IMG/VR virus record: IMGVR_UViG_3300022555_000042
Source: an uncultured virus (IMG/VR IMGVR_UViG_3300022555_000042)
Taxonomy: Duplodnaviria > Heunggongvirae > Uroviricota > Caudoviricetes
Length of the DNA: 20,000 nucleotides
Direction: 5' to 3' (one strand)
In this document: positions 364 to 15,328 of the stretch, piece after piece
Position numbering within the stretch: position 1 is the stretch's first letter
How the letters are laid out: every line of letters begins with the position of its first letter
The notes under the pieces: generated by a model
What the model saw: the letters and a program-made list of their open reading frames with translations, nothing else
Told to the model about the DNA's origin: nothing
Database searches by the model: none
Program-made: the position numbers and the translations under genes

Positions 364-995
364 TGCAGAACCATGAGACTATCGCCATCACCACTAAGGA
401 GTTTGATGATCTCCTTGAGTACAGTGCATCATTACCCACCGGAACCACTATTGGGAAACGATGGAAAGCCCATCGGGTGCACGATGGCCTGGACTATTGG
501 CTGATGGGTGAATATACACCCCACCTCGATCCAGAGATGGTTGGAATCAAGTGGCGGAAGATCATCGTCAACGAGATCGAGCAGGTCATCGGAGACTATC
601 AGATCGCAGATATCACGAAAATGTACCAGGGCGTGCCACCCCCCAAGTGCATGCAGGACAGCGTTGATTGGTGGTTTATGATCGGGCAGTTTGTTGCTGA
701 ATATAGCTCCCTTCCCGAGGTGCCGGCTCGGATCATCGTTCATGGATTTATGGCTGTAATGGTGGATTATACTCGTTTCCGAGAGGTCAGGTATGAGTAC
801 GCCAATGGGGATTTGATGCTGCTTGACCGAGAGGATTTGAGGATCACGAACGAGTTCGCCAACAAGAACGCGGTGGTGGCGGCATTGGAGTCGGCGATTG
901 CGAATATGGGATCAGCTCCGCGCATAGAGCTGTTGAAATGGCGTCTTCCTGGCGATGCCAGGGAAAGTGAATCGGGGTTCGAAGAAATTCGTTAG
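360..995 (+). CDS. hypothetical phage protein
   Basis: 211-aa ORF coupled to upstream stop; no recognised domain. Confidence 0.75.
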   Translation: MMQNHETIAITTKEFDDLLEYSASLPTGTTIGKRWKAHRVHDGLDYWLMGEYTPHLDPEMVGIKWRKIIVNEIEQVIGDYQIADITKMYQGVPPPKCMQDSVDWWFMIGQFVAEYSSLPEVPARIIVHGFMAVMVDYTRFREVRYEYANGDLMLLDREDLRITNEFANKNAVVAALESAIANMGSAPRIELLKWRLPGDARESESGFEEIR

Positions 996-1540
996 ACTCT
1001 ATCTAATTTGAAACCGGGAAACCGCAATTCTGGTGTTATGGTAATCTGCTGCACCAGTAGCGATGATGGTATTAGCCACGAGTTCTTATTCTGATCGAAC
1101 AGAAAGAAATAATCGACGTCGTCCAAGCTATATTGCACTTTTTCTCTGGTGCCATTACCCCACTGACGATGGAACACATTGAATATGAAATTGCCGCTGG
1201 GGTTGGCCAAGCCGGACGATTTTATCTGTACTCTCCTCCAGCCAGATCCAAAATCCACTAAGAGGTCATATGGTAGGCTAGCGTGAACTTGCGCCCACTC
1301 GAATCCAGCGAGGTCGCAGCGAAATTTTAAATACGATTCGGCAGCACGATCCAATTTACCATTGCCTCCGAATAGTATTAATGACTTCTCGCCATTTGGG
1401 ACAACCGAAGAGTTGCGTGACAGGCCTAGTCTCATTAACTGCCTGGACACAGTGGCGTGGTGCTTGTAGCCCAATGTTCTCGCTATTTTGCGAGCGCCAA
1501 GCCCCATTTTGAATAATTCGATAATTCGCTGGTCTTGCAT
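992..1540 (-). CDS. free-standing PD-(D/E)XK endonuclease (PDDEXK_5 / I-Ssp6803I-like) with N-terminal HTH
   Basis: HTH IIELFKMGLGARKIARTLG; catalytic pattern AAE...PYDLLVD...RVQIKS...YSLDDVDYF; start moved to MQDQ because the track start at 1576 lies in the tRNA. Confidence 0.82.
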   Translation of the reverse strand: MQDQRIIELFKMGLGARKIARTLGYKHHATVSRQLMRLGLSRNSSVVPNGEKSLILFGGNGKLDRAAESYLKFRCDLAGFEWAQVHASLPYDLLVDFGSGWRRVQIKSSGLANPSGNFIFNVFHRQWGNGTREKVQYSLDDVDYFFLFDQNKNSWLIPSSLLVQQITITPELRFPGFKLDRV

Positions 1541-1568
1541 ACACATTAGATTTGATCGGAATACATTC

Positions 1569-1649
1569 GCTCTCATGGCGGAATTGGCATACGCAGCGGT
1601 TTCAGATACCGTGCCGAATGGCTTGCAGGTTCGACTCCTGCTGAGAGCA
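1569..1649 (+). tRNA. tRNA-Leu(CAG)
   Basis: Acceptor GCTCTCA/TGAGAGC, anticodon arm GCGGT-TTCAGAT-ACCGT, variable arm, GGTTCGACTCC. Confidence 0.95.
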
Positions 1650-3260: not shown

Positions 3261-3332
3261 GCCGCCGTAGCTCAATAGCAGAGCTCCCGTCTTGTACACG
3301 GGTGGTTGTAGGTGCGAATCCTACCGGTGGCT
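3261..3332 (+). tRNA. tRNA-Thr(TGT), non-canonical A18/G55
   Basis: Acceptor GCCGCCG/CGGTGGC, anticodon arm CCCGT-CTTGTAC-ACGGG, T arm GTAGG-TGCGAAT-CCTAC. Confidence 0.9.
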
Positions 3333-3368
3333 ATTCTATGCAAACATAATGTTTTAATCGAGGGTTCG

Positions 3369-4106
3369 ATGAGTTATGTTAGCACACAACGATGGCGAGT
3401 TAAGGCAAAACAGTGGCTCGTCAAGTACAGTGGGGGTAAATGTCAGTCATGTGGATATGATAAATATCACGGCAACTTTGCATGGCACCATTTGCGAGAT
3501 AAAAAGGCAGCCATGGCTAGGTTGATTAATAAGTGCTCATCGTGGAATGATATTATTGAGGAGGCGGATAAATGCGTGATGGTCTGTCATAATTGTCATG
3601 GTGAGATTCACGCTGGTATTAGGGCATGTCCAGAAGTTAATGTTGATAATCGCAAGGTGGCGATGGCAGCCATTGGGCCTCAGAGACCAATCCCAACTAG
3701 CCATAAATTCACATATTGCCACGAGTGCGGGAGGCCAACCAAGGGCAATAAATTCTGTTCATGGAAATGTCAATGCCAGTATGCCAATAAAATAAAGTGG
3801 CCTGATGACCTCGCTGGCTTGGTTGCGAACGAGACAATAGAAGTAGTCGCCGATAAGATGGGCATATCACCAGTGCTTGTTAACAAACGATTGCACGCCA
3901 AGAGGTGCAGGTGTGGCAAGCTAATGAGGCGTGGGAATACATGCCGCGAGTGTGCCCTTATTAAACGGGAGAAAATTACTTGGCCAGATAATCTCCCAGA
4001 GCTAATAAAGAATTCATCGTATCGGGCTGTCGCAATATCATTGGGTGTTTCAGACAAAGCTGTCGCAAAAAGGATAAAGAACCATTATGGGACGTTACAC
4101 GTATGA
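3369..4106 (+). CDS. HNH homing-type endonuclease with two C-terminal Zn-finger/HTH modules
   Basis: GGKCQSCGYD...WHH...KCVMVCHNCHGEIH; two repeats of Cys cluster + WPDxLxxL...HTH; track start 3312 lies in the tRNA so the ATG at 3369 is used. Confidence 0.88.
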   Translation: MSYVSTQRWRVKAKQWLVKYSGGKCQSCGYDKYHGNFAWHHLRDKKAAMARLINKCSSWNDIIEEADKCVMVCHNCHGEIHAGIRACPEVNVDNRKVAMAAIGPQRPIPTSHKFTYCHECGRPTKGNKFCSWKCQCQYANKIKWPDDLAGLVANETIEVVADKMGISPVLVNKRLHAKRCRCGKLMRRGNTCRECALIKREKITWPDNLPELIKNSSYRAVAISLGVSDKAVAKRIKNHYGTLHV

Positions 4107-6219: not shown

Positions 6220-6333
6220 ACCGGACTTTTGAATTATGTGGTATTTGCCGCTGCTGCCGCTGGACAGCACGGGCGGCCAGCAGCGAGGTAAGCCCACCGA
6301 TGAATAAATATAAGTAGGAGTTGTTGACTAATC

Positions 6334-6417
6334 GCTCGGGTGGCGAAATTGGCAGACGCGCAAGCTTGAGGTGCTTGTGGCCGCAAGGTCTTGCAGGTTC
6401 GACTCCTGTCCCGAGCA
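6334..6417 (+). tRNA. tRNA-Leu(GAG)
   Basis: Acceptor GCTCGGG/CCCGAGC, anticodon arm CAAGC-TTGAGGT-GCTTG, variable arm. Confidence 0.96.
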
Positions 6418-6431
6418 TTAAGGAGGTTATC

Positions 6432-7055
6432 ATGACTGCCGTATTATCAGAGCCTGTTCTGATCCTGAACCGCAACTATGTGGCGCAAGATTTCGTCACG
6501 GCGCGGAAGGCTGTCAACCTGCTCATGCAGGGTCGGGCCGAGGCCCTAGATATCGAAGGCGAAGAGCCTAATCGCAAGTACTTCACCTACGATTTCGAGT
6601 CCTGGAAGGAGCTGAGTGAGTTCAAGGCTGAGTTCGAGCGGGAGCAGCACATCTGGCTCCGGACCGTCAACCGGCACATCGCAGTCCCCTCCATTCTGCG
6701 GCTGACCCACTATGGGGAGTATCGGCGTCGGAAGGTTAAGCTCAACCGGCACAACCTCTTTGCGCGGGATGGCTTCCGGTGCCAGTACTGCGGCAAGAAG
6801 TTTAAGTCTTCGGATTTGACTTTGGACCACGTTATCCCCAAGAGCCGGGGCGGCAAGCTGGAGTGGCACAACCTGGTTTGTGCATGTGTAGCTTGCAATA
6901 CGCGCAAGTCCGCTCGGACGCCTCGGGAAGCCGGGATGCGGTTGGTGCGGGAGCCGAAGGCTCCGCCTTACCAGTTCCCCATCCCCAGAGTGCAGCGCGC
7001 CTCTTGGGCACATTTTGTGGATGTGGCTTACTGGCTTACGACTCTCCAAGAGTAA
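6432..7055 (+). CDS. HNH endonuclease (McrA-like / COG1403-type, VLILNxxY family)
   Basis: AAGGAGG RBS; VLILNRNY...RHNLFARDGFRCQYCG...LTLDHVIPKSRGG...WHNLVCACVACNTRK. Confidence 0.93.
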   Translation: MTAVLSEPVLILNRNYVAQDFVTARKAVNLLMQGRAEALDIEGEEPNRKYFTYDFESWKELSEFKAEFEREQHIWLRTVNRHIAVPSILRLTHYGEYRRRKVKLNRHNLFARDGFRCQYCGKKFKSSDLTLDHVIPKSRGGKLEWHNLVCACVACNTRKSARTPREAGMRLVREPKAPPYQFPIPRVQRASWAHFVDVAYWLTTLQE

Positions 7056-7091: not shown

Positions 7092-8003
7092 ATGCCTAAA
7101 ATCATAAAGAGTATAGCTTGGGTGGCCTCCGAAGTTACTCGGAGGCCACTCAACGCCATAGCGGAGGAAATAGGTGTTTCAGATGTTGGTTTAGGTCAGT
7201 TCTGTAAACGCCACAATATCCCAGTTTTCAATCCAAGTTACTTCCGCAGACTTGACTCCAAATCTGATGCTGGTGACTGTCCGCAATGCGGCACTAAGCG
7301 CAAAGTCCGTAAGTATATTAATAACTTGTGTGAAAGAGGATTTACCTATTGCAGAATATGTCCAAATTGTCACGCCAATCAGCAGCGTGAGGGGGTTCGC
7401 GGTCGTCGTAAAATAGAGGGCCAGTGCGTGGGGTGCGGTGGTGAGCCACAACCGGGACTATATTATTGTTCAAAATGCCACAATGTCTCAGTTAGCAATA
7501 AAAGGCTGAGAGCCAGATTGAGGAAAGATAAATTAGTTAAGATAATGGGTGGAAAGTGCAGCGAATGCGGTGGGCAGTTCCACAACGCCGCGTATGATTT
7601 TCATCACTTGTCTGATAAATTTAAAAGTATGAGTCACATGTTGGCTGGCAACTCTTGGGAAGCCACGCTGCTTGAGTCCAAGAAATGCCGCCTACTGTGT
7701 GCTGTTTGTCATAGGCTAGGGCATAAGTACCGGCTAATTGGTGATGTTCCATCTGAGTCTGGATTGTATAAGCGAGCATTTGTTCAGAACCGCAAGAAGC
7801 AGCCATGCCAGGACTGTGGCCTCCAATTTCACCCCACAGCGATGGAATTTGACCACCGTGACAGTCTGACCAAGTCATTTAATATATCTAATGTGGCGTG
7901 CCGTAGGTATACCATTGGCGAGTTGACTGCCGAAATAATAAAATGCGACTTAGTGTGTGCCAACTGTCACCGTGTTAGAACTTTCAGCCGGTTTGGCCGC
8001 TAG
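7092..8003 (+). CDS. endonuclease with N-terminal HTH, Zn fingers and two tandem HNH domains
   Basis: GGKCSECG..YDFHH..KCRLLCAVCHRLGH and PCQDCG..MEFDH..KCDLVCANCHRVRT. Confidence 0.88.
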   Translation: MPKIIKSIAWVASEVTRRPLNAIAEEIGVSDVGLGQFCKRHNIPVFNPSYFRRLDSKSDAGDCPQCGTKRKVRKYINNLCERGFTYCRICPNCHANQQREGVRGRRKIEGQCVGCGGEPQPGLYYCSKCHNVSVSNKRLRARLRKDKLVKIMGGKCSECGGQFHNAAYDFHHLSDKFKSMSHMLAGNSWEATLLESKKCRLLCAVCHRLGHKYRLIGDVPSESGLYKRAFVQNRKKQPCQDCGLQFHPTAMEFDHRDSLTKSFNISNVACRRYTIGELTAEIIKCDLVCANCHRVRTFSRFGR

Positions 8004-8079: not shown

Positions 8080-11000
8080 ATGTCAAATATCCACATAGTT
8101 GGCTTTAAAGAAGTAACCCTAGTGGGCGGGGTGGTCAAAGACCTCACTTCTTTAACTTTTGGGGAAAGGCTCATAGCCACGCGGGAAACGCGCGTGGACG
8201 CAGTCGGATACCCCACCCTAACAAGATATCTCCAGGACGAAGCGGCCAGTGATTTTGTGTTGGCCAAATTCAACACTTCTGCCATAATTACTAAGTTGGC
8301 AGTATCACCCCTGCCTCCTGTCGTTCCCGCCAAGGCCACCACGCCCACCTTTATCTATGACGCCACCACAGTAACGGCCCACGCCACGGCGACGGGCTCT
8401 ACTTCCATGCTGTACAGCTATGATGCTGGCGTAACGTGGGGTGTGGCAACAGCAACCAAGGCGTACGGCACCACCGGCAGTTGCTTGGCTAAGGGGCACA
8501 ATACTGCTGGAGATGGACCGGTCAGTGAAGCGGGGACATGGCTGCAAGTTCCCGCCAAGGCCACTACGCCCACTGTCGTAGCCCTCTTAGATGGCGATAA
8601 GTACGTCTACACTCTGGATGCGACCAGTGTAGGGTCCACCAGTGTGGTCTACGACATCAACGATAGTGGCACGTACACCGCCGCGAAGAAGTTTGCAGGC
8701 GGGGCGGTGAGTGATGGCACAGGATTACATACGCTGTATCCAAACTTGGAGGGATACTACACCATCACTGGCATCTATGGTGGCAAGAAGGTGCTGACAG
8801 GTACACACGGAGTGTTGTGGTGGAATGTTTCCAGTTGGTGGGTTTCGGACGCGGCGGGTAGTGATGTGTGGGCAGCAAATCAAGAGAGCGATTACGGGGC
8901 TGCCGGTCACGGACGCGCATGTTATCCAGCTTCGGAAGTGGAAGGCATTCCGCAAGGGTACATGGATGTGAGTCCCGGTGGTCCCGCTGACTGCATCACC
9001 CTCCTGCTGAACGGTGAGCATACTGCTGCGACTGCGTTTGTGGCGAAGGCTCGCGGTGTCAATGCTGCTGGCAATGGGCCAATAAGCGATCCTCTGACGC
9101 TGTCATGGCTTAGCGATCCTCTAGCTCCCAGTAAGCCGAGTGCCCCGGTGATTGATCCCCTTACCGATTGGTCTAGCGCTAACTGGAATGGTTCAGCGTG
9201 GACCTATGTGATGATGGTGGGGACAATCGACTACGCCGACAGCATGGGAGGGGAGTCGTGGGGATGTCCTCTGGCAAGTGTTGGTAGCTACTTCATAGAC
9301 AGTGGATCTCCCATCGCTCCTAGTGCTGATTTGAGCGGCATCGTTTGCTACGGCGTCAGCGCCATTTACGGGCGTGGCCAACCGTCCGATCCGTCGGACG
9401 CCTCCCAGATCGCAATGGGCAGCCCCCTACCTAATGCTGGTGCCCCCGCTCAGATTCCAAACTTAGATTCTATTAATTGGAACCAAGACTTTACCTGTTG
9501 GGAGATAAATATCTCCTGGTCAGACTATTTTGACGACACCGAAATCTATCGCGAAACACTTTTAGACAGCACAGTTTTCAATACATTTAATTCTTATGTT
9601 TCTGGATATGCCCCCAATGCTCCATATTCAATTTATATAACACACTCTAATGCCTATGGCCCAACTACCTCAGCAGGTACAATTGATGGCACTCTTCCAG
9701 ATACCCCGGCCGGTCCGTATCTCTGGACAAACGCCCTGGCCGATAACGATGGTCTGAATCCGGGCAACTACACGGTCGGAGGCGTGCCGGCGAGCACGAT
9801 CTTTGGGCCTGGCGACACCGTGCAATGGGATTACACGGTGGCTGGCGGAGTTGCTACGAACGCTCCGGTATTCTCGGCCTCCGCAGCATGCGGCAACGCC
9901 GTGATCAACTACACGCTGCTCGACGACTCGGTTCCATCCGGGAGTGCAGCTAGCTTCGCGGCCCTGAGCGCAGGGAACTGCACCGTCAACGCCATGGTCG
10001 CCGGGGCGGTCACAGCGGCTCAATGGTTCACGACGATTCCACCGGCGACGATCACGGGCTCGATCCATGTGACGGCCTCGTCCACGGCCTCGGCGTTTGG
10101 AACCAGTGCGATAGACGTGGTGGGCTGCCAGCTGGCCAGCGGTTTCACCGTCGCCGGCGACGCGTACATCTCCGGCGGAGTGCTGGACACCGCGACCGGC
10201 GGGCTGATCTTCCCCGTGCTGGCGTATGGTGCCGTGGCGGGCGACGTGTACGTAACGGGCGACGTGTTCTACCTGTACAGCACCGCGGTAGGCGGGGTAT
10301 TCCACATCACCGGCAACCTGTCGCGGGTGGATGTGACGAACTGCGGGCTCTCTGTGGCCCAGGTAGACTCGCTATTGGCGGCCGCGGATGCGGGCGGAGT
10401 GTACGGGGGCGCGATCGCATTCACCGGCAACAACGGCTACTCCGACGAGACTTCCTACACTACGCTGGTTGCGCGCGGCTGGACCATCGACGTACCGGAT
10501 AACGCTCCGAACAATCTCCCCGGTCCGGCCACGCTCACCCTGGTCTCGGCGACCTGGAACGGAACGGTCTGGCTGTATCAGCTATCCGCCGTGGCCGACC
10601 CCGGAGCGGGCACGATCACCTCCTACACATGGTATGAGGGCACGATCAGTGGGGATGTCGCCGCGCTCATCGCGGTCGGACCCGGCTATGCTTTCAGTTT
10701 CACCGCCACGGCCACCAGCGAATACGGTGAAGGGCCTGTGGGGGAACCGTTGGTGGGGACGGCGGACCCCGCTCCAACTTTCAGAGGAACGAGCTACATC
10801 ACACACCCGGCACTAACTTTAGGATATGGACTGACTGTCAGTGCCCGAATTTCGTCTGTCTATGATGGGGGAGTCCAGATGATGGCCGAAGCCGACTATT
10901 CTGGGACGCCAACTGGACAGCCCCAGGTGTTTTTGCAATATGACGGTAGATGGCATATTGGGTGTATTGGTTTTGCTGACTTAGACACTCTTGCTTCAAT

Positions 11001-11346
11001 AGATCCTGGAGTGGAGCATTGTTATACGGCTCGTTTTTCTGATGATGGGCTGGGGACTGTCTCTCTAGATTTCTTTGTGGATGGAGTACTGCAGTCAGGC
11101 ACTACTGCATCTGGCTCGATCGCTGGTAATGTACTTTCAACCTTCGCAGCGCGGGGGGCGGGGAGTATTGGCCTAGTTGGCGAGGCCAATAACTACGCAA
11201 TCTGGAGTCGAGCCCTGCTTGACGTAGAGATTGCGGCGGTTGCTGGCGGAGGCTACATTATTCCTGATATCTTCTTACATTGGCCGGATTGCAGTACTGC
11301 GGTTGATACTTCAGGTAATACCAACGATGGGACGCCACACTTGTAA
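8080..11346 (+). CDS. large virion-type adhesin/decoration protein with FN3-like repeats and C-terminal LamG/ConA-like domain
   Basis: 1088 aa, rich in T/S/G/A; modules begin PAKATTPT or PSKPSAP and end AxGxNxAGxGPxS; C-terminus FFVDGV...AIWSRAL..EI...DTSGNTNDGT. Confidence 0.75.
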   Translation: MSNIHIVGFKEVTLVGGVVKDLTSLTFGERLIATRETRVDAVGYPTLTRYLQDEAASDFVLAKFNTSAIITKLAVSPLPPVVPAKATTPTFIYDATTVTAHATATGSTSMLYSYDAGVTWGVATATKAYGTTGSCLAKGHNTAGDGPVSEAGTWLQVPAKATTPTVVALLDGDKYVYTLDATSVGSTSVVYDINDSGTYTAAKKFAGGAVSDGTGLHTLYPNLEGYYTITGIYGGKKVLTGTHGVLWWNVSSWWVSDAAGSDVWAANQESDYGAAGHGRACYPASEVEGIPQGYMDVSPGGPADCITLLLNGEHTAATAFVAKARGVNAAGNGPISDPLTLSWLSDPLAPSKPSAPVIDPLTDWSSANWNGSAWTYVMMVGTIDYADSMGGESWGCPLASVGSYFIDSGSPIAPSADLSGIVCYGVSAIYGRGQPSDPSDASQIAMGSPLPNAGAPAQIPNLDSINWNQDFTCWEINISWSDYFDDTEIYRETLLDSTVFNTFNSYVSGYAPNAPYSIYITHSNAYGPTTSAGTIDGTLPDTPAGPYLWTNALADNDGLNPGNYTVGGVPASTIFGPGDTVQWDYTVAGGVATNAPVFSASAACGNAVINYTLLDDSVPSGSAASFAALSAGNCTVNAMVAGAVTAAQWFTTIPPATITGSIHVTASSTASAFGTSAIDVVGCQLASGFTVAGDAYISGGVLDTATGGLIFPVLAYGAVAGDVYVTGDVFYLYSTAVGGVFHITGNLSRVDVTNCGLSVAQVDSLLAAADAGGVYGGAIAFTGNNGYSDETSYTTLVARGWTIDVPDNAPNNLPGPATLTLVSATWNGTVWLYQLSAVADPGAGTITSYTWYEGTISGDVAALIAVGPGYAFSFTATATSEYGEGPVGEPLVGTADPAPTFRGTSYITHPALTLGYGLTVSARISSVYDGGVQMMAEADYSGTPTGQPQVFLQYDGRWHIGCIGFADLDTLASIDPGVEHCYTARFSDDGLGTVSLDFFVDGVLQSGTTASGSIAGNVLSTFAARGAGSIGLVGEANNYAIWSRALLDVEIAAVAGGGYIIPDIFLHWPDCSTAVDTSGNTNDGTPHL

Positions 11347-12361: not shown

Positions 12362-12661
12362 ATGTACCCAGATCCTAAATTAATATCCGAAACCATGGCG
12401 TTACTAGGCGTCGCCGACGAAGCCAAGTCTAGCGATGCCATTCTCCTACGCCAAGCTATTATCGCCGAGCTGGATGCCGCTAGCCTCTATGAACAAATGG
12501 CGGCCAGCACCAAGAACGAGAAGATCAAAAAGGTCTTCTTGGACGTGGCCAAGGAAGAGAAAGTACATGTGGGGGAATTCGAGGCGCTCTTGGGGGAGGC
12601 AGACAAAGAGCACGACAAAGCCATGGAGGATGGCACCTCGGAAGTCGCAAAAGTGAAGTGA
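12362..12661 (+). CDS. ferritin-like / rubrerythrin-family protein (two-helix half-ferritin type)
   Basis: LRQAIIAELDAASLYEQMA...VFLDVAKEEKVHVGEFEALL: ExxA..Y and EExxH diiron motifs; GAGG RBS. Confidence 0.88.
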   Translation: MYPDPKLISETMALLGVADEAKSSDAILLRQAIIAELDAASLYEQMAASTKNEKIKKVFLDVAKEEKVHVGEFEALLGEADKEHDKAMEDGTSEVAKVK

Positions 12662-12683
12662 ATACCGGTCAGATTAAGTATAT

Positions 12684-12755
12684 TCAGGGTGGGGAATTTT
12701 GAGATCCCGGCCTCTCGGTTCCGGACCGAGCGCTCTGCCTCTGAGCTACACCCTG
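12684..12755 (-). tRNA. tRNA-Pro(CGG) with aberrant T arm
   Basis: Reverse complement CAGGGTG-TA-GCTC-AGAGGCA-GAGC-G-CTCGG-TCCGGAA-CCGAG-AGGCC-GGGAT-CTCAAAA-TTCCC-CACCCTG-A. Confidence 0.85.
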
Positions 12756-13085
12756 GGTTATATGGTGAAATAGTCCCTTCTTCATTGGGATTCCAAGTAC
12801 TATGCACCGCTTTGAACTGCTACCACAATCGTGCCGGTAAATCTGGGCGGTGGGGTTCGCACCCACACGAATCTCCGGGTCCCAAACCCGGCGACCTGCT
12901 AAATGGTCCTCGCCCAGGTGGTCCCCGGCGGTGCACGAGTTGGCACTCGTGGCCTCACCTGCCGGGGTATTTTTGTGTTTCTCCACGTACCCGCTGTGTT
13001 CCTGACAGCGGGCTCCCTCTGTGGCTGACCAAGTGGCTACTCCCTTCTTTCCGCACACTTCGCATTTCAGATCGTCCAGCTTCAC
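12684..13085 (-). CDS. small Zn-finger-like protein whose frame runs through both tRNA-Pro genes
   Basis: GTG start overlaps the upstream stop; N-terminal CEVC...C..H; C-terminal part of doubtful function. Confidence 0.45.
   Translation of the reverse strand: MKLDDLKCEVCGKKGVATWSATEGARCQEHSGYVEKHKNTPAGEATSANSCTAGDHLGEDHLAGRRVWDPEIRVGANPTAQIYRHDCGSSSKRCIVLGIPMKKGLFHHITQGVAQRQSARSGTERPGSQNSPP
12842..12917 (-). tRNA. tRNA-Pro(TGG), non-canonical A8 and A18/G55
   Basis: Reverse complement CTGGGCG-AG-GACC-ATTTAGCA-GGTC-G-CCGGG-TTTGGGA-CCCGG-AGATTCGT-GTGGG-TGCGAAC-CCCAC-CGCCCAG-A. Confidence 0.85.
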
Positions 13086-13525
13086 TGCTTCTCCAAAAAC
13101 TTCCCAATGAATTCTTTAATCTGCTGAACAACCCGGTGGCTGAACTGCATGGGATCAGTAGGACTATGTAAAGTCCAGCCTTCGCCCTCACCACCGACAC
13201 CACCGATCATGGAGGTCTCGGCGTTCATTGAGTAGCGCTCTCCATCCTTAGTGAGGCATCCAAAAGTGCCTCCATCTTTGAACTGCACCTCCAGGTATAA
13301 CCAGATCTGGTTTCCGGGGCGATCGCTGGTCTCGTCGGTGAGGAGGACGGCTTTCTGATTGTGGCGTTGGCGTGGGTCGTTGGGGTCGATGGGGGTTAGG
13401 ACCTTGACGATGGAGGCATTAGTTACCTCACCATCTATGATTCCTTCGCGTACGATGCTGACCATCTCGGTGAACATCTGGACGGGGTTGCCGCTTCTAA
13501 TCCATGCCATCTGTCTTCGTTCCAT
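13082..13525 (-). CDS. hypothetical protein
   Basis: 147-aa ORF in the minus-strand gene run. Confidence 0.75.
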   Translation of the reverse strand: MERRQMAWIRSGNPVQMFTEMVSIVREGIIDGEVTNASIVKVLTPIDPNDPRQRHNQKAVLLTDETSDRPGNQIWLYLEVQFKDGGTFGCLTKDGERYSMNAETSMIGGVGGEGEGWTLHSPTDPMQFSHRVVQQIKEFIGKFLEKQ

Positions 13526-13531
13526 AATGAT

Positions 13532-14506
13532 CTAGGCCTTAGTCTTCAGGTGTTTCTTGACGGCCTTGTCTGTCACCCCCAATAAGATACCAATTGCTCT
13601 CATTGAGCTCTGCGCAACCAGCTCGGCCAAATTGCTTGGCCATTTCGTTTTCCGCTTATAGAATGCAGAGCATACTACGCTGCAGTACTTTTTCCTTGCT
13701 GCTTCCCTCTGGTTCTGAAACTCGAATTGCTTTCCGCATTTACACATGCCGTGCCCAAAATTGGTTCTTGTCTTTGTTTTTGGTTGCCTGAACCACAATT
13801 TTTTCAGCCTATCTTGCCATTGGGCGGCCCCGGATTCGAACCGGGGATCTACTGGATGTAGGCCAGTCGGGTTAGCCGCTTCCCTAGCCGCCCGGATTAT
13901 GTGTTTCACTTTGTCTTGGTCCCATGCGATTTCACTCTCCCATATGTCAATTATTATCCACCCATGCTTCTCGAAGTAAATTTTAGCATTTCGATCTTGA
14001 ATCCTATTGTGTTTTTGTGGTTTCGTTAGGTCATCTTGATTTGGATAAAGCAGTGGGTTGGCGTGCCAGTAGTCACCATTTATCCTAAATATGGTTTTAT
14101 GCGTGAGGTCAACGAAGTCGCATAAATACCTTTGGATTGGGTATTGGTAAAATATATCCGCATTGACATCATCGCTTTGTTTGATTATCTCATGCATGCC
14201 GGGCGGAAACTTGACGCCGACGCCGCATTCATTCAGTAATATTCTGAACATTCGCTCTGGTTTTGTCCAAAATTTCCTGCTTGATATCGCCGATTTAATT
14301 GCGTTCGCGCTGCATTGCTCCGATGTCATATTTGCGACTTTGCATATGCCCTTGGAGACCGTCAATCTCCCAGCATCTGATTGTGATCGATGGCCTTTTA
14401 CCAATTTAGATATTCTGGCATTACTAGCGCCGGTCTTTAATGACACTTCTTTATAAGTCAGGCCGCCGTCATACAACTCAATTATTTTATCATCCATCTC
14501 GCTCAT
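13532..14506 (-). CDS. Vsr/DUF559-like endonuclease with N-terminal HTH and C-terminal Zn-finger/HTH, containing an in-frame tRNA-Val
   Basis: WTKPE...QYPIQRYLCDF...INGDYWHANP...QD....FEKHGWIIIDIWESEI; C-terminal KYCSVVC..KWPSNLAELV..LGVTDKAVKK homologous to 3369..4106; GGAG RBS. Confidence 0.88.
   Translation of the reverse strand: MSEMDDKIIELYDGGLTYKEVSLKTGASNARISKLVKGHRSQSDAGRLTVSKGICKVANMTSEQCSANAIKSAISSRKFWTKPERMFRILLNECGVGVKFPPGMHEIIKQSDDVNADIFYQYPIQRYLCDFVDLTHKTIFRINGDYWHANPLLYPNQDDLTKPQKHNRIQDRNAKIYFEKHGWIIIDIWESEIAWDQDKVKHIIRAAREAANPTGLHPVDPRFESGAAQWQDRLKKLWFRQPKTKTRTNFGHGMCKCGKQFEFQNQREAARKKYCSVVCSAFYKRKTKWPSNLAELVAQSSMRAIGILLGVTDKAVKKHLKTKA
13821..13893 (-). tRNA. tRNA-Val(TAC), divergent (C33, 3-bp D stem), nested in CDS
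   Basis: Reverse complement GGGCGGC-TA-GGG-AAGCGGCTAA-CCC-G-ACTGG-CCTACAT-CCAGT-AGATC-CCCGG-TTCGAAT-CCGGG-GCCGCCC-A; acceptor, anticodon and T stems perfectly paired. Confidence 0.88.
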
Positions 14507-14507
14507 A

Positions 14508-14553
14508 GAACCATCTCCAAAGCCATTAGATTATGTTTGGTTGGAGATGGTTC
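14508..14553 (-). promoter_or_regulatory. RBS-sequestering hairpin with putative promoter in the loop
   Basis: Perfect 13-bp inverted repeat GAACCATCTCCAA/TTGGAGATGGTTC covering the GGAG of the endonuclease gene; loop holds CAAACATAAT. Confidence 0.75.
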
Positions 14554-14557
14554 GACT

Positions 14558-14568
14558 GCTAACCGCCC
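14558..14568 (-). pseudogene. probable 5' remnant of ancestral tRNA-Val
   Basis: Reverse complement GGGCGGTTAGC is a typical tRNA-Val 5' end and 8/9 identical to the nested tRNA start; only 11 nt. Confidence 0.55.
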
Positions 14569-14726
14569 TTGAACCAACGAGCCAATTTCTGCCGTAGTGT
14601 TTCGCGTCCCCGCTCGCATCCGCACCAATTCTTGGGTTTCAAATGGCCGGCAGAGACCACTTTCATGCATGGCTGACTAAGGCCGTGTTCATCAATTCTG
14701 TTTTTGCCGCAATAATCACAGATCAT
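14559..14726 (-). CDS. 55-aa Cys-rich protein (not in ORF track)
   Basis: MICDYCGKNRIDEHGLSQPCMKVVSAGHLKPKNWCGCERGRETLRQKLARWFKGG*; ATGA overlap with upstream gene. Confidence 0.65.
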   Translation of the reverse strand: MICDYCGKNRIDEHGLSQPCMKVVSAGHLKPKNWCGCERGRETLRQKLARWFKGG

Positions 14727-14968
14727 GTCCAGCTTCCTACGTGATTTAGCACCGAGAGCAATATGGTTACTAGTACCACTACAGCTGTTAGCAGTGCACC
14801 AATGACGATTATCCCGCAGCCGAGGATGGGAGAGACCATGTCGTATTGACCTTGTTGTTTCCCATGGCGTCTGGCCAGGTTGGTGGTGATTACTACTCCG
14901 AGCACTATTTCGAGGAGGTAAACGACCAGCATCGTTGGAATGTACATGCCCATGCGTCTCGCCTTCAT
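14723..14968 (-). CDS. small membrane protein (2 TM)
   Basis: Two hydrophobic segments; start uncertain (14968/14953/14947). Confidence 0.65.
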   Translation of the reverse strand: MKARRMGMYIPTMLVVYLLEIVLGVVITTNLARRHGKQQGQYDMVSPILGCGIIVIGALLTAVVVLVTILLSVLNHVGSWT

Positions 14969-14983
14969 GCTTTCAAATACTAA

Positions 14984-14999
14984 CGCGCCGAGCAGGACT
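14984..14999 (-). pseudogene. 3' remnant of ancestral tRNA (Trp-like, G73)
   Basis: Reverse complement AGT-CCTGC-TCGGCGC-G; TCGGCGC pairs with GCGCCGG at 15100-15106. Confidence 0.75.
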
Positions 15000-15001
15000 A
15001 A

Positions 15002-15074
15002 CACGGTAGGAGAGGCTCGAACTCTCAAATGCCGGTTTTGGAGACCGGTGCTGTGCCGCTACAGCTTCTACCGT
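15002..15074 (-). tRNA. tRNA-Trp(CCA), divergent (A8/U14)
   Basis: Reverse complement ACGGTAG-AA-GCTG-TAGCGGCA-CAGC-A-CCGGT-CTCCAAA-ACCGG-CATTT-GAGAG-TTCGAGC-CTCTC-CTACCGT-G. Confidence 0.92.
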
Positions 15075-15083
15075 ATATCATTA

Positions 15084-15106
15084 TCTGCCAATTGAGCTAC
15101 CGGCGC
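15084..15106 (-). pseudogene. 5' remnant of ancestral tRNA (Trp-like)
   Basis: Reverse complement GCGCCGG-TA-GCTC-AATTGGCA-GA: canonical acceptor strand plus D arm. Confidence 0.8.
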
Positions 15107-15328
15107 TTATAATCTGCGACCCTTGTGGGAATCGTCGATTTCTTCGATTTTGGTTTCATCTTCCAGGACTGGTTCCTTGGGGACTTCGGTGAGGTACCCA
15201 CTCTCGGCCATTTCCCGTTTGATGATGCCGATGCATTTGGGGCAGTAGGCCATGTGGGGCATGGCGTTGCCGTTGCAGCGGCGGCATTTCATGATCTTGG
15301 AAGCCTTCTTTTTGGGTTTCGGTTTCAT
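15107..15328 (-). CDS. small CxxC-CxxC protein
   Basis: CRRC...CPKC; GGAGG RBS. Confidence 0.7.
   Translation of the reverse strand: MKPKPKKKASKIMKCRRCNGNAMPHMAYCPKCIGIIKREMAESGYLTEVPKEPVLEDETKIEEIDDSHKGRRL

Follow-up and report, generated by a model that had tools for sequence, protein, structure and literature searches.

On a 20,000-nt stretch of DNA from an uncultured virus of the Caudoviricetes (IMG/VR record IMGVR_UViG_3300022555_000042; hereafter the window), a large lake phage that is present in lake metagenomes (runs X1-X6), we found a complete tRNA-Val(UAC) gene inside the open reading frame of a putative homing endonuclease. The tRNA lies on the sense strand of this ORF, at the linker between the predicted nuclease domain and a C-terminal DNA-binding module. 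The same arrangement recurs in most of the homologous loci that we collected. Selection acts on both the reading frame and the cloverleaf, and the comparative sequence data indicate that the nesting is a family trait and not a product of chance. The features of the locus are as follows.

13532..14506, minus strand: the single ORF, P0001, 324 codons, with an HTH, a Vsr-like nuclease domain, the tRNA-coded linker and a Zn-ribbon/HTH module
14351..14506, minus strand: N-terminal helix-turn-helix region, about residues 1-52 (from Pfam, homologs and the structure model)
13895..14275, minus strand: Vsr-like (DUF559 / EDxHD-type) nuclease domain, about residues 78-204 (from invariant columns, Foldseek and profiles)
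13821..13893, minus strand: complete tRNA-Val(UAC), 73 nt, on the sense strand of the ORF (ARAGORN Val(tac), Rfam)
13535..13819, minus strand: C-terminal DNA-binding module, about residues 230-324 (W230/W238 motif, CxC...CxxxC Zn-ribbon, HTH)
14508..14553, minus strand: leader hairpin; the Shine-Dalgarno sequence GGAGA is in its 3' arm, which stops 1 nt short of the ATG
14558..14568, minus strand: 11-nt tRNA-Val 5' end, GGGCGGTTAGC, an exact match with a single occurrence in the window

A first-pass annotation had described a paired tRNA-Val(TAC) cloverleaf at 13821-13893, in frame and on the same strand inside a nuclease gene. Both statements hold: ARAGORN calls the tRNA, the Rfam tRNA model (RF00005) scores it at 58.9 bits, well over its gathering score of 29, and the minus-strand ORF runs straight through it. 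The first base of the tRNA is codon position 2, and the gene codes for about residues 205-229 of the protein. These residues read RAAREAANPTGLHPVDPRFESGAAQ, which is the translation that the annotation had given for the segment. The span it proposed for the whole unit, 13532..14568, was right at the start but not for the end of the ORF, which stops at 14506; the remainder is the leader and the 11-nt fragment. The nested tRNA carries the anticodon TAC and the 3' terminal base A. The identity elements of valyl-tRNA synthetase, known from work on E. coli, are the anticodon UAC with A35 and C36, and the discriminator A73. The 44.9-kb record has 20 tRNAs, with no Val(tac) among them other than the nested gene. 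The window DNA is not an assembly artefact, because an independent study (run X4) provides a 217-nt contig that spans 13720-13936 with 0 differences and bridges the tRNA on both sides. There were no RNA runs among the listed sequencing runs containing the stretch.

Another open frame in the window, 6321-7055, also contains a tRNA, a tRNA-Leu(gag). We considered it as a second case of nesting and dropped it, because a Met located 15 nt past the tRNA is the likelier start.

P0001 has 31 homologs at 30-54% identity, mostly over the full length. Its AlphaFold model has a mean pLDDT of 89 and falls below 50 only at residues 214-224, within the tRNA-coded linker. At the N-terminus there are weak Pfam HTH matches (residues 7-43), and the model places helices at residues 3-51. 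The homologs match PF13384/PF13518 in this region, and a profile search against the PDB with it retrieves HTH repeat proteins. The nuclease domain had been annotated as Vsr/DUF559-like, and the fold bears this out. The best PDB match of the model in Foldseek is 3r3p, the catalytic domain of I-Bth0305I (prob 1.00, TM 0.84 on the target), and Vsr 1cw0 (prob 1.00), 3hrl (0.99) and Vsr 1vsr (0.98) were matched as well, all four with E >0.001. The Pfam DUF559 model reaches E 0.0012, short of the Pfam cut-off. The P0001 profile, searched against the PDB, found 3hrl (E 0.0026) and Vsr (E 0.012) and gave no match to 3r3p. Eight residues are invariant in the nuclease domain of 32 aligned sequences (T81, P83, D130, G144, D145, H148, N150, D171), and the profile alignment pairs D130 and H148 with the VDF and QHA motifs of 3hrl. 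In Vsr, the conserved catalytic residues are D51, H69 and D97 (PMC3239194, partial text), for which D130, H148 and D171 are the candidate counterparts. I-Bth0305I and its EDxHD family share with P0001 the Vsr-like fold, a modular HTH-type DNA-binding region joined to the nuclease and, possibly, the conserved Asp/His/Asp-type residues (same partial text). However, I-Bth0305I lies in a group I intron of recA and has its DNA-binding region N-terminal to the nuclease (PMC3239194, partial text), whereas P0001 is free-standing, with binding modules at both ends and a tRNA as linker; the sequence similarity between the two is marginal.

Directly past the tRNA segment, W230 and W238 are near-invariant among the homologs. 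Residues 255-323 match the two tandem C-terminal modules of the ORF at 3312-4106 on the plus strand (BLASTP E 6e-12 with 42% identity, and E 2e-8 with 35%), in agreement with the earlier proposal that the C-terminal domain is homologous to the C-terminus of the HNH endonuclease at 3369..4106. PHROG 15471, 'HNH endonuclease', matches residues 250-322 (E 2.3e-5), and tblastn finds the module at the C-terminal ends of proteins annotated as HNH endonucleases in cultured phages. By these matches, it is one that HNH homing endonucleases also have. We infer that P0001 has nuclease activity and a DNA target. A tblastn search with P0001, P0036 and P0041 against 50,697 GenBank phage records found 0 records in which 80% or more of the query was matched; the matches in these phages comprised the nuclease core or the C-terminal module only. 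A megablast search with the locus gave no match.

We gathered homologous loci by DNA searches seeded on nuclease-domain peptides only, which led to 39 distinct loci. In 33 of them there is again a tRNA-Val-like gene on the same strand, in the same place at the linker and within a single open frame. Twenty-six of these nested copies are called by ARAGORN (24 tac, 1 tat, 1 cac), and the other 7 were found only by the family covariance model R1, with 60-68 bits. Their length varies from 72 to 80 nt. Among 26 relatives, 17 of the 20 consensus stem pairs show compensatory changes. In the cloverleaf alignment 99% of the cells are paired, a percentage that is inflated because the rows were selected by ARAGORN. 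Covariation in the same selected rows amounts to 0.898, compared with 0.238 in shuffled alignments and at most 0.19 when the alignment is slid. A35 and A73 are invariant in the 26 rows of alignment A2, C36 occurs in at least 90% of the rows, and the anticodon loop is kept across the 26 ARAGORN rows. Joint conservation of the frame and covariation of the stems had been proposed as a check on the nesting, and both are found in 33 of the 39 loci. The family comprises 62 clusters at E <=1e-30 among 1.84 billion representatives, and its tree comes from a quick search and is midpoint-rooted. Among 66 family proteins, the linker is long and of the tRNA type in 48 and short in 9, and in the other 9 it could not be assigned. 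A tRNA is missing from all 61 loci of distant Vsr-like relatives (0/61), and the nesting is therefore specific to the P0001 family.

A single tRNA with an open frame proves little. Of 128 free-standing tRNAs, 38%, 43% and 17% were open by chance at the three codon offsets, and with some 40% open at offsets 0 or 1 it is the family evidence that decides. All 33 nested copies are open, and codon offset 2, at which T8-A9-G10 would read TAG, is used by 0 of 33. One clade translates the anticodon as LH. and the other as VYT, with the C-terminal domain in frame in both, and this frame is kept over the whole range of tRNA lengths. In members without a nested tRNA, the same two protein halves are fused directly. 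We found no start codon after the tRNA segment that is conserved in the family, and the frame is open over the parts present in all 39 distinct loci. The protein thus does continue past the tRNA, as the first-pass annotation had it. Among database proteins, P0062 is frameshifted past the linker and P0065 ends shortly after the tRNA part. In P0103 and P0115, the C-terminal part is called as a separate gene by some pipelines.

In the remaining 6 of the 39 loci, the ORF is intact and the nested tRNA is absent, and a tRNA-Val is located just upstream or downstream instead. In L179, L191, L193 and L201, for example, a tRNA-Val(tac) or a nested-type copy adjoins the ORF. The nested copies are also not uniform. 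In one subclade they deviate from the canonical tRNA: G8 occurs in 14 of the 33, the T-loops read ATCGTTA or AGCGTTA, and D-loops lack GG, while all stems are kept. The nested copies of L190 and L183 go unreported by the general Rfam tRNA model, and that of L171 scores 24.5 bits (<29). The copies of these three loci may have lost their decoding function.

Parts of a second tRNA-Val gene surround the ORF in several loci. In the window, this would be the 11-nt 5' end upstream of the leader. A search for GGGCGGTTAGC with at most one mismatch gave at least one match in 64 of 200 shuffles, so that the fragment, taken by itself within the window, has no statistical significance. However, 5' tRNA-Val fragments of 12-37 nt are found at the homologous position in L184, L169, L171, L196, L190 and L183, and 3' parts lie downstream of the ORF in L196, L177 and L189, besides L190. 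Altogether, tRNA-Val fragments flank the ORF in at least 8 loci besides L190. The 11-nt 5' end had been noted before, and the longer fragments at the same place and the 3' halves behind the stop give it substance. A 3' tRNA-Val half was not found at the window locus. The window's fragment is probably the remnant of a resident tRNA-Val gene that was entered by the cassette.

L190 is the one locus in which the two halves rejoin cleanly. Its 5' half (positions 2-33) ends 6 nt ahead of the open frame, and its 3' half (positions 35-73) begins 1 nt past the stop. When they are joined in silico, ARAGORN calls a tRNA-Val(tac), split between positions 34 and 35. The insert of 1073 nt has only 86 nt of non-coding sequence (92% ORF) and its last base is an A. 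As judged from this sequence, the L190 cassette lies within its putative target gene, in the anticodon loop after U34. In L196 the halves had to be extended before they could be rejoined, and the product was Val(gac). Upstream in L183, L169 and L171, the fragments are nearer to the nested type than to the canonical tRNA-Val; for these, serial invasions or the decay of duplicates fit as well as a single insertion. We searched viral contigs for an endonuclease-free allele in two ways. A protein search with the downstream neighbour (13082-13525) found no relative, and an exact search for the L190 5' tRNA half gave no match.

The leader between the fragment and the ORF is predicted to be structured. 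The RNA of 14508-14553 folds with -24.7 kcal/mol (z -3.2), and 0 of 200 shuffles were as stable. The base of the stem is a family-wide pair, TCGAACC / GGTTCGA. Among relatives, 21 of 29 leaders have z <-2, and positions -20 to -1 are paired with a median of 75%. The conserved hairpin is thus predicted to cover the ribosome-binding site. Hairpins of this kind have been reported for I-TevI-III, segB and mobE (PMC2988022, partial text). A promoter and terminator scan of 12600-15300 gave counts no higher than in shuffles.

We think it probable, with considerable room for doubt, that this is a free-standing homing-endonuclease cassette that is specialised on the tRNA-Val(UAC) gene in the tRNA arrays of large phages and carries a spare copy of it in its own linker. 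The cassette, a structured leader with one ORF, would enter the resident tRNA-Val(UAC) gene and split its anticodon loop. As it has no intron or intein to mend the split, the nested gene would provide the replacement tRNA. We regard the nested gene as a replacement copy because the resident tRNA-Val(UAC) gene would be destroyed by the cassette lying within it; we propose that invasion would therefore be cheap for the phage. In support of this, there is one tRNA-Val(UAC) per locus, which is either the nested one, as in the 44.9-kb record, or a copy beside the ORF. The cassette would be transcribed together with the tRNA array, which has the same orientation. Release of the tRNA by RNase P and 3' processing would cut the nuclease message in two. 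Full-length enzyme would be made only from rare unprocessed transcripts with an open leader hairpin, and the toxic nuclease would be kept low. Both the maturation and charging of the nested tRNA and a competition between processing and translation are implied, and one transcript would yield either the tRNA or the enzyme. It is also possible, and we offer this tentatively, that the enzyme makes up for breaking its target gene with a full working copy that serves as its protein linker, in place of splicing of RNA or protein, that the mutual exclusion of tRNA maturation and translation works as an expression switch, and that the odd D- and T-loops of many nested copies make the spare immune to the nuclease that it accompanies.

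The first-pass annotation had explained the arrangement by retention: a beneficial tRNA between the two halves would make a clean deletion of the selfish gene unlikely. This idea is compatible with a replacement copy, and it resembles the essential promoters that are embedded in the seg/mob genes of T4. These promoters, too, are host-needed elements inside endonuclease ORFs, and they favour the keeping of the endonuclease genes (PMC2988022, partial text), although they are short DNA signals, whereas the element here is an entire gene for a structured RNA that also codes for protein. Retention would agree with the frame being open over the parts present in 39 of 39 loci and with the nested gene being the sole Val(tac) of its record. 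However, six of the loci have lost the nested tRNA and kept the ORF, so the linkage can be undone, and in the nuclease-keeping direction. With a tRNA-Val adjoining these intact ORFs, the claim that the nuclease could not be deleted without losing tRNA-Val is weakened. Point mutations could moreover inactivate the enzyme and leave the tRNA unharmed, and the broken flanking halves are not explained. We therefore consider retention by cargo rather unlikely.

A different view is that the nested element is an RNA processing or regulatory structure, or the fossil of a linker, in which cleavage by RNase P/Z limits the nuclease and decoding is irrelevant. The G8 subclade invites this view, with its D-loops without GG, T-loops such as AGCGTTA and copies that fail or fall below the Rfam tRNA model while all stems are kept. 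However, the copy in the window is canonical (58.9 bits), and the anticodon loop and the discriminator A73 are kept across 26 rows. The bias towards Val(UAC), with 24 of 26 ARAGORN calls, and the tRNA-Val beside the ORF in loci without a nested copy argue that the decoding function is conserved. A pure processing structure is thus unlikely.

T4/T6 SegB, a GIY-YIG free-standing homing endonuclease within a phage tRNA gene cluster (PMC2330249, PMC13096335; partial texts), resembles the cassette in being a selfish nuclease gene inside a phage tRNA array and in having an RBS-sequestering hairpin (PMC2988022, partial text). SegB recognises tRNA-gene DNA and is co-inherited with the neighbouring tRNA genes (PMC2330249, PMC13096335; partial texts), to which we liken the cassette. 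The two differ in that SegB is a GIY-YIG enzyme encoded between tRNA genes, whereas P0001 is Vsr-like, has a tRNA as in-frame linker and belongs to a cassette that interrupts a tRNA gene. A tRNA inside the frame of SegB is not described in the available parts of PMC2330249 or PMC13096335. Like T6 SegB, P0001 could be a domesticated nuclease that helps the phage against host defences directed at tRNAs, by driving the amplification or exchange of tRNA genes, instead of homing selfishly. SegB is enriched near tRNAs and amplifies a unit of tRNA-Tyr and truncated segB, escaping Septu (PMC13096335, partial text), and tRNA-Val duplicates and partial copies do flank members of our family. However, the loci showed no tandem amplification units, the junctions of L190 resemble a simple insertion into a gene, and there is no defence context in the window. 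Domestication therefore seems improbable.

Group I introns with homing endonucleases occur in tRNA anticodon loops, and some integrating elements rebuild the tRNA gene that they invade. As with these, the cassette would use a tRNA gene as landing site and compensate the damage; unlike them, it would do so with a complete second gene within its coding sequence, not by splicing or with a duplicated gene end. That a group I (or other) intron in the tRNA-Val anticodon loop carries the ORF, with the flanking halves as exons of a spliced tRNA, is very improbable. The L190 insertion after U34 does fall at the classical place of bacterial tRNA group I introns. However, Rfam intron families were absent from the window at the gathering score and from L190, L196, L183 and L171 at E <=1. 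Group I introns end with G, whereas the L190 insert ends with A and has just 86 of its 1073 nt to spare as non-coding sequence, and most loci have truncated halves or none.

Finally, an annotation artefact, in which two separate genes surround a tRNA that happens to be open, would fit the roughly 40% of free tRNAs that are open at offsets 0 or 1 and the separate C-terminal calls (P0103, P0115), but it is hardly credible and already contradicted by the comparative sequence data, with 33 of 33 nested copies open, the C-domain frame kept over lengths of 72-80 nt and two anticodon phases, no conserved start past the tRNA and direct fusions in tRNA-less members.

Our literature search for a structured RNA gene on the sense strand that is dual-coded with protein in bacteria or phages found one bioinformatic case, selC in selB. 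There, selC (tRNA-Sec) is nested in the selB ORF of Alphaproteobacteria (Mukai 2021, PMC8124441, partial text). As in the cassette, a whole sense-strand tRNA gene lies inside an ORF and is kept among relatives, with remnant and tRNA-free forms, and it was hypothesised that folding and processing of the tRNA repress the full-length protein (same partial text), as we propose here. The selC gene occupies an extension at the C-terminus of SelB, a cellular translation factor that is functionally tied to that tRNA (PMC8124441, partial text), whereas the tRNA in P0001 forms an inter-domain linker of a mobile nuclease and would replace a disrupted gene. Both cases are bioinformatic only.

Dual coding of this kind is almost unknown in bacteria and phages, and here a whole family has visibly kept both constraints. 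The family offers a natural system in which RNase P processing and the ribosome would compete for one RNA. It also points to a blind spot of annotation, as these genes come out split or truncated from pipelines that bar an ORF from crossing a tRNA, as in P0103 and P0115. The finding bears on the shuffling and retention of phage tRNA arrays. If our explanation is true, bringing a spare of the broken gene would be a third route to a harmless selfish nuclease, beside introns and inteins.

The 324-codon P0001 ORF (13532..14506) stays open through an entire tRNA-Val(tac) gene, whose first base is codon position 2 and which encodes approximately residues 205-229 of the protein. The first-pass annotation had described an in-frame, same-strand tRNA-Val inside a nuclease ORF, and the P0001 frame does read through 13821-13893. 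The 20-kb window has 10 tRNA genes by ARAGORN and 12 by Rfam. The ORF and the tRNAs surrounding it all lie on the minus strand:

15001-15075, minus strand: tRNA-Trp
13532..14506, minus strand: P0001 ORF
13821-13893, minus strand: tRNA-Val(tac) (ARAGORN; Rfam, 58.9 bits)
12842-12917, minus strand: tRNA-Pro
12684-12755, minus strand: tRNA found by Rfam only

The 44.9-kb viral record, which is rated 18% complete and contains 100% of the window's sampled words, carries 20 tRNAs. The nested gene is its only Val(tac), while Val(gac) and Val(cac) are located elsewhere in the record. The stretch is present in independent lake and freshwater metagenomes (6 DNA runs from 3 studies), and a contig from an independent study spans the nested tRNA on both sides with 0 differences to the window. 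A 1088-codon ORF amid the tRNA region (8080-11346, plus strand) had no Pfam or PHROG matches.

An AlphaFold2 model of P0001 (32 aligned sequences) had a mean pLDDT of 89; pLDDT was below 50 only at residues 214-224, midway through the tRNA-encoded stretch. The protein is organized as follows:

Residues 1-52: helix-turn-helix
Residues ~78-204: Vsr-like nuclease (PDB fold matches and family profile)
Residues 230-324: C-terminal module, opening with the W...LWF motif (near-invariant), then a Cys4 ribbon and an HTH

The top PDB match of the nuclease was 3r3p, the catalytic domain of the homing endonuclease I-Bth0305I (probability 1.00, TM 0.84 on the target), followed by Vsr and the DUF559-like 3hrl; the Foldseek E-values of all P0001 matches exceeded 0.001. 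A comparison of the family profile with the PDB gave 3hrl (E 0.0026) and Vsr (E 0.012), and D130, H148 and D171 are invariant in the family alignment. Two tandem copies of the C-terminal module, detected at E 6e-12 and 2e-8, close the HNH gene 3312-4106, and the module also matches the C-termini of HNH homing endonucleases from cultured phages. The predicted succession of a nuclease, a linker and a Zn-finger/HTH part akin to an HNH C-terminus was therefore right, and the nested tRNA does occupy the flexible inter-domain linker. The Zn-ribbon/HTH module itself is found in tandem and is mobile between nucleases of the Vsr-like and HNH kinds (downstream of the ORF in loci L196 and L198, in the family protein P0006 and at 3312-4106 of the window); in a profile search, single proteins carried as many as 16 repeats of it and were as long as 1312 aa (P0104).

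A single open tRNA could be due to chance, since 38%, 43% and 17% of 128 free-standing tRNAs from related loci are open at codon offsets 0, 1 and 2, respectively, and it is the comparative data that decide. A word-indexed protein search yielded 31 P0001 homologs with 30-54% identity, the majority covering 97-99% of the query, and in the protein alignment their linkers resemble translated tRNAs. Homologous DNA was fetched by searches seeded on nuclease-domain peptides only, so that the choice of loci was independent of the C-terminal part being in frame. The 47 loci obtained represent 39 distinct ones, including the window's own DNA (L164). ARAGORN detected a same-strand tRNA at the homologous place, in a single open frame, in 26 of the 39; these tRNAs are 72-80 nt long and comprise 24 Val(tac), one Ile(tat) and one Val(cac). 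R1, a covariance model derived from those 26 sequences, gave a full-length match (60-68 bits) at the same place in seven further loci, whereas neither ARAGORN nor R1 found a nested tRNA in the remaining 6 of the 39.

The frame is open through all 33 nested copies, with 30 at offset 1, three at offset 0 and none at offset 2, where U8-A9-G10 would be read as TAG. The anticodon is read as L-H in one clade and as V-Y-T in the other; thus it is the frame of the downstream domain that is conserved, not the linker peptide. The tRNA part contains no stop or frameshift in any locus that the fetched DNA covers completely. A few database proteins are short forms: P0103 and P0115 result from alternative gene calling of the C-terminal part at loci whose DNA is continuous, P0062 has a frameshift after the linker, and P0065 terminates right after the tRNA part. 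A profile search gave 62 family clusters at E up to 1e-30, and the long linker of the tRNA type was present in roughly three quarters of the 66 members scored. The family is absent from GenBank phage records. We conclude that the cassette contains a single ORF whose linker is encoded by a tRNA gene.

The tRNA is also conserved as an RNA. RNAalifold recovered the cloverleaf from the 26 ARAGORN-called copies (mean column identity 62%), with compensatory changes at 17 of 20 pairs. The covariation score was 0.898, against 0.238 for shuffled alignments (none of 500 reached it) and 0.19 or less after sliding the partners. Of the 520 cells 99.0% are paired, a percentage inflated by ARAGORN having picked the rows for pairing; what is informative is how many and how varied the double changes are at 62% identity. 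A35, U55, C56 and A73 are invariant, and the seven copies found by R1 only retain 19-20 of the 20 pairs. Frame and stem covariation, which the first-pass annotation had proposed to examine jointly in homologs, are hence both preserved, and selection acts on both readings, tRNA and protein.

The window's own nested tRNA is canonical. Departures from the tRNA canon are common to the seven R1-only and some ARAGORN-positive copies: G8 (14 of 33), D-loops lacking GG, and T-loops reading ATCGTTA or AGCGTTA. The general Rfam tRNA model did not report the copies of L190 and L183 and gave that of L171 only 24.5 bits. One subclade combines these features with intact stems throughout (L170, L173-L175, L178, L180, L181, L183, L185, L190, L194 and L205), and they recur in L193 (3393-3465) and L201 (3582-3654). 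We take the changed positions to be partners of the tertiary pairs 8-14, 18-55 and 54-58. Either a relaxation of function or evasion of the nuclease that travels with them may explain these departures.

Where the nested tRNA is missing (six loci), a tRNA-Val mostly lies beside the ORF:

L179, L191: Val(tac) directly upstream of the ORF
L193, L201: nested-type copy 7-8 nt past the stop
L195: Val(gac) and Ile(tat) upstream
L204: cut at the 5' end

Compared with the nested tRNAs in the closest relatives by protein, these neighbouring tRNAs show 69-77% identity. L165 has a nested Val(tac) and a second one (3474-3547) starting within the ORF stop codon, a layout that may be intermediate between nested and adjacent. 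In a quick tree of 34 rows (midpoint-rooted, not fully searched, omitting the short loci L203, L205, L209, L210 and L211), the best-supported deep split has tRNA-bearing members on either side, and tRNA-less members are scattered, requiring five changes as drawn, of which at least two are forced by well-supported branches. Nesting therefore looks ancestral, with repeated loss.

Fragments of tRNA-Val flank the ORF in several of the 39 loci, as revealed by an HMM of the nested tRNAs and short-word BLAST with complete tRNAs masked. The 5' fragments all begin at tRNA position 1 or 2, 6-130 nt ahead of the frame, and the 3' fragments behind the stop extend to the discriminator:

L183, upstream: positions 1-37
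L190, upstream: positions 2-33
L171 and L196, upstream: positions 1-30
L169, upstream: positions 1-23
L184, upstream: positions 1-12
Window, upstream: positions 1-11
L190, downstream: positions 35-73, beginning 1 nt past the stop
L196 and L177, downstream: positions 35-73
L189, downstream: positions 25-74

When the L190 halves were joined computationally, ARAGORN recognized a tRNA-Val(tac); thus a 1073-bp insert, consisting of an 86-nt leader and the entire ORF with its nested element, sits between positions 34 and 35 of the resident gene. Splicing is unlikely, since Rfam found no intron at E up to 1 in the fragment-flanked loci examined and the insert ends in A. A resident tRNA-Val gene has thus taken up the cassette in at least one locus. 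Fragment lengths differ between loci, and fragments are frequently missing, the pattern that decay of a dead gene would give.

A structured leader precedes the ORF. In the window, the 46 nt upstream of the ATG form a hairpin (-24.7 kcal/mol, z -3.2) with the Shine-Dalgarno sequence inside its 3' arm:

14508-14553, minus strand: TCGAACC ... GGTTCGA hairpin pair (RNA fold), common to relatives

The relatives' leaders share this stem base, and their extensions differ yet are mutually complementary; z is below -2 in 21 of 29 leaders, and a median of 75% of the last 20 nt is paired. The Edgell review (PMC2988022) reports sequestration of the RBS for I-TevI-III, segB and mobE, and describes an operator for I-TevI on its own gene. 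The GGTTCGA arm is the T-arm motif of tRNA genes, which is also the core of the SegB recognition site according to PMC2330249. The pair could be a hairpin only, or also a putative binding site of the nuclease on its own gene; an operator role of the GGTTCGA arm here is speculation.

At least four further homing-endonuclease-like genes were identified in the window by Pfam and PHROG, one PD-(D/E)XK nuclease with HTH and three HNH:

992-1576, minus strand
3312-4106, plus strand
6321-7055, plus strand
7092-8003, plus strand

Three catalytic types are represented among the selfish nucleases that densely populate the tRNA array. A whole tRNA-Leu(gag) (6334-6417) lies on the same strand near the 5' end of the HNH frame 6321-7055; a Met 15 nt past it is the likelier start, so the open frame over this tRNA may be chance read-through. 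Further tRNAs accompany 33 of the 39 family loci, against none at the 61 loci from distant Vsr-like relatives, and the association is limited to tRNA-Val(UAC) and tRNA arrays.

The protein would be a homing endonuclease whose targets are intact tRNA-Val(UAC) genes in competing phages. The cassette would be copied into the cut gene during repair, and the nested copy would substitute for the lost tRNA. Processing of the array transcript would sever the nuclease message, so that little enzyme would be made. The proposal that the nuclease is retained because of its cargo is compatible with the data and has a precedent in the promoters embedded in seg and mob genes (PMC2988022), but the nested tRNA was lost from intact ORFs six times in our sample. 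The observation in the first-pass annotation thus stands, and its interpretation is supported in part only.

The P0001 family is closest to SegB in lifestyle, to I-Bth0305I in fold and, in gene layout, to selC inside selB, which Mukai 2021 (PMC8124441) presents as the first case of a tRNA gene nested within an ORF of bacteria. Full-text searches of literature outside the subscription journals brought up neither a tRNA within the ORF of a homing endonuclease nor an endonuclease that brings along a spare copy of its target. The cassette combines a free-standing homing endonuclease with a nested tRNA gene, each of a kind already known. The dual coding of tRNA and protein is conserved family-wide, and the logic of the spare copy is directly testable.
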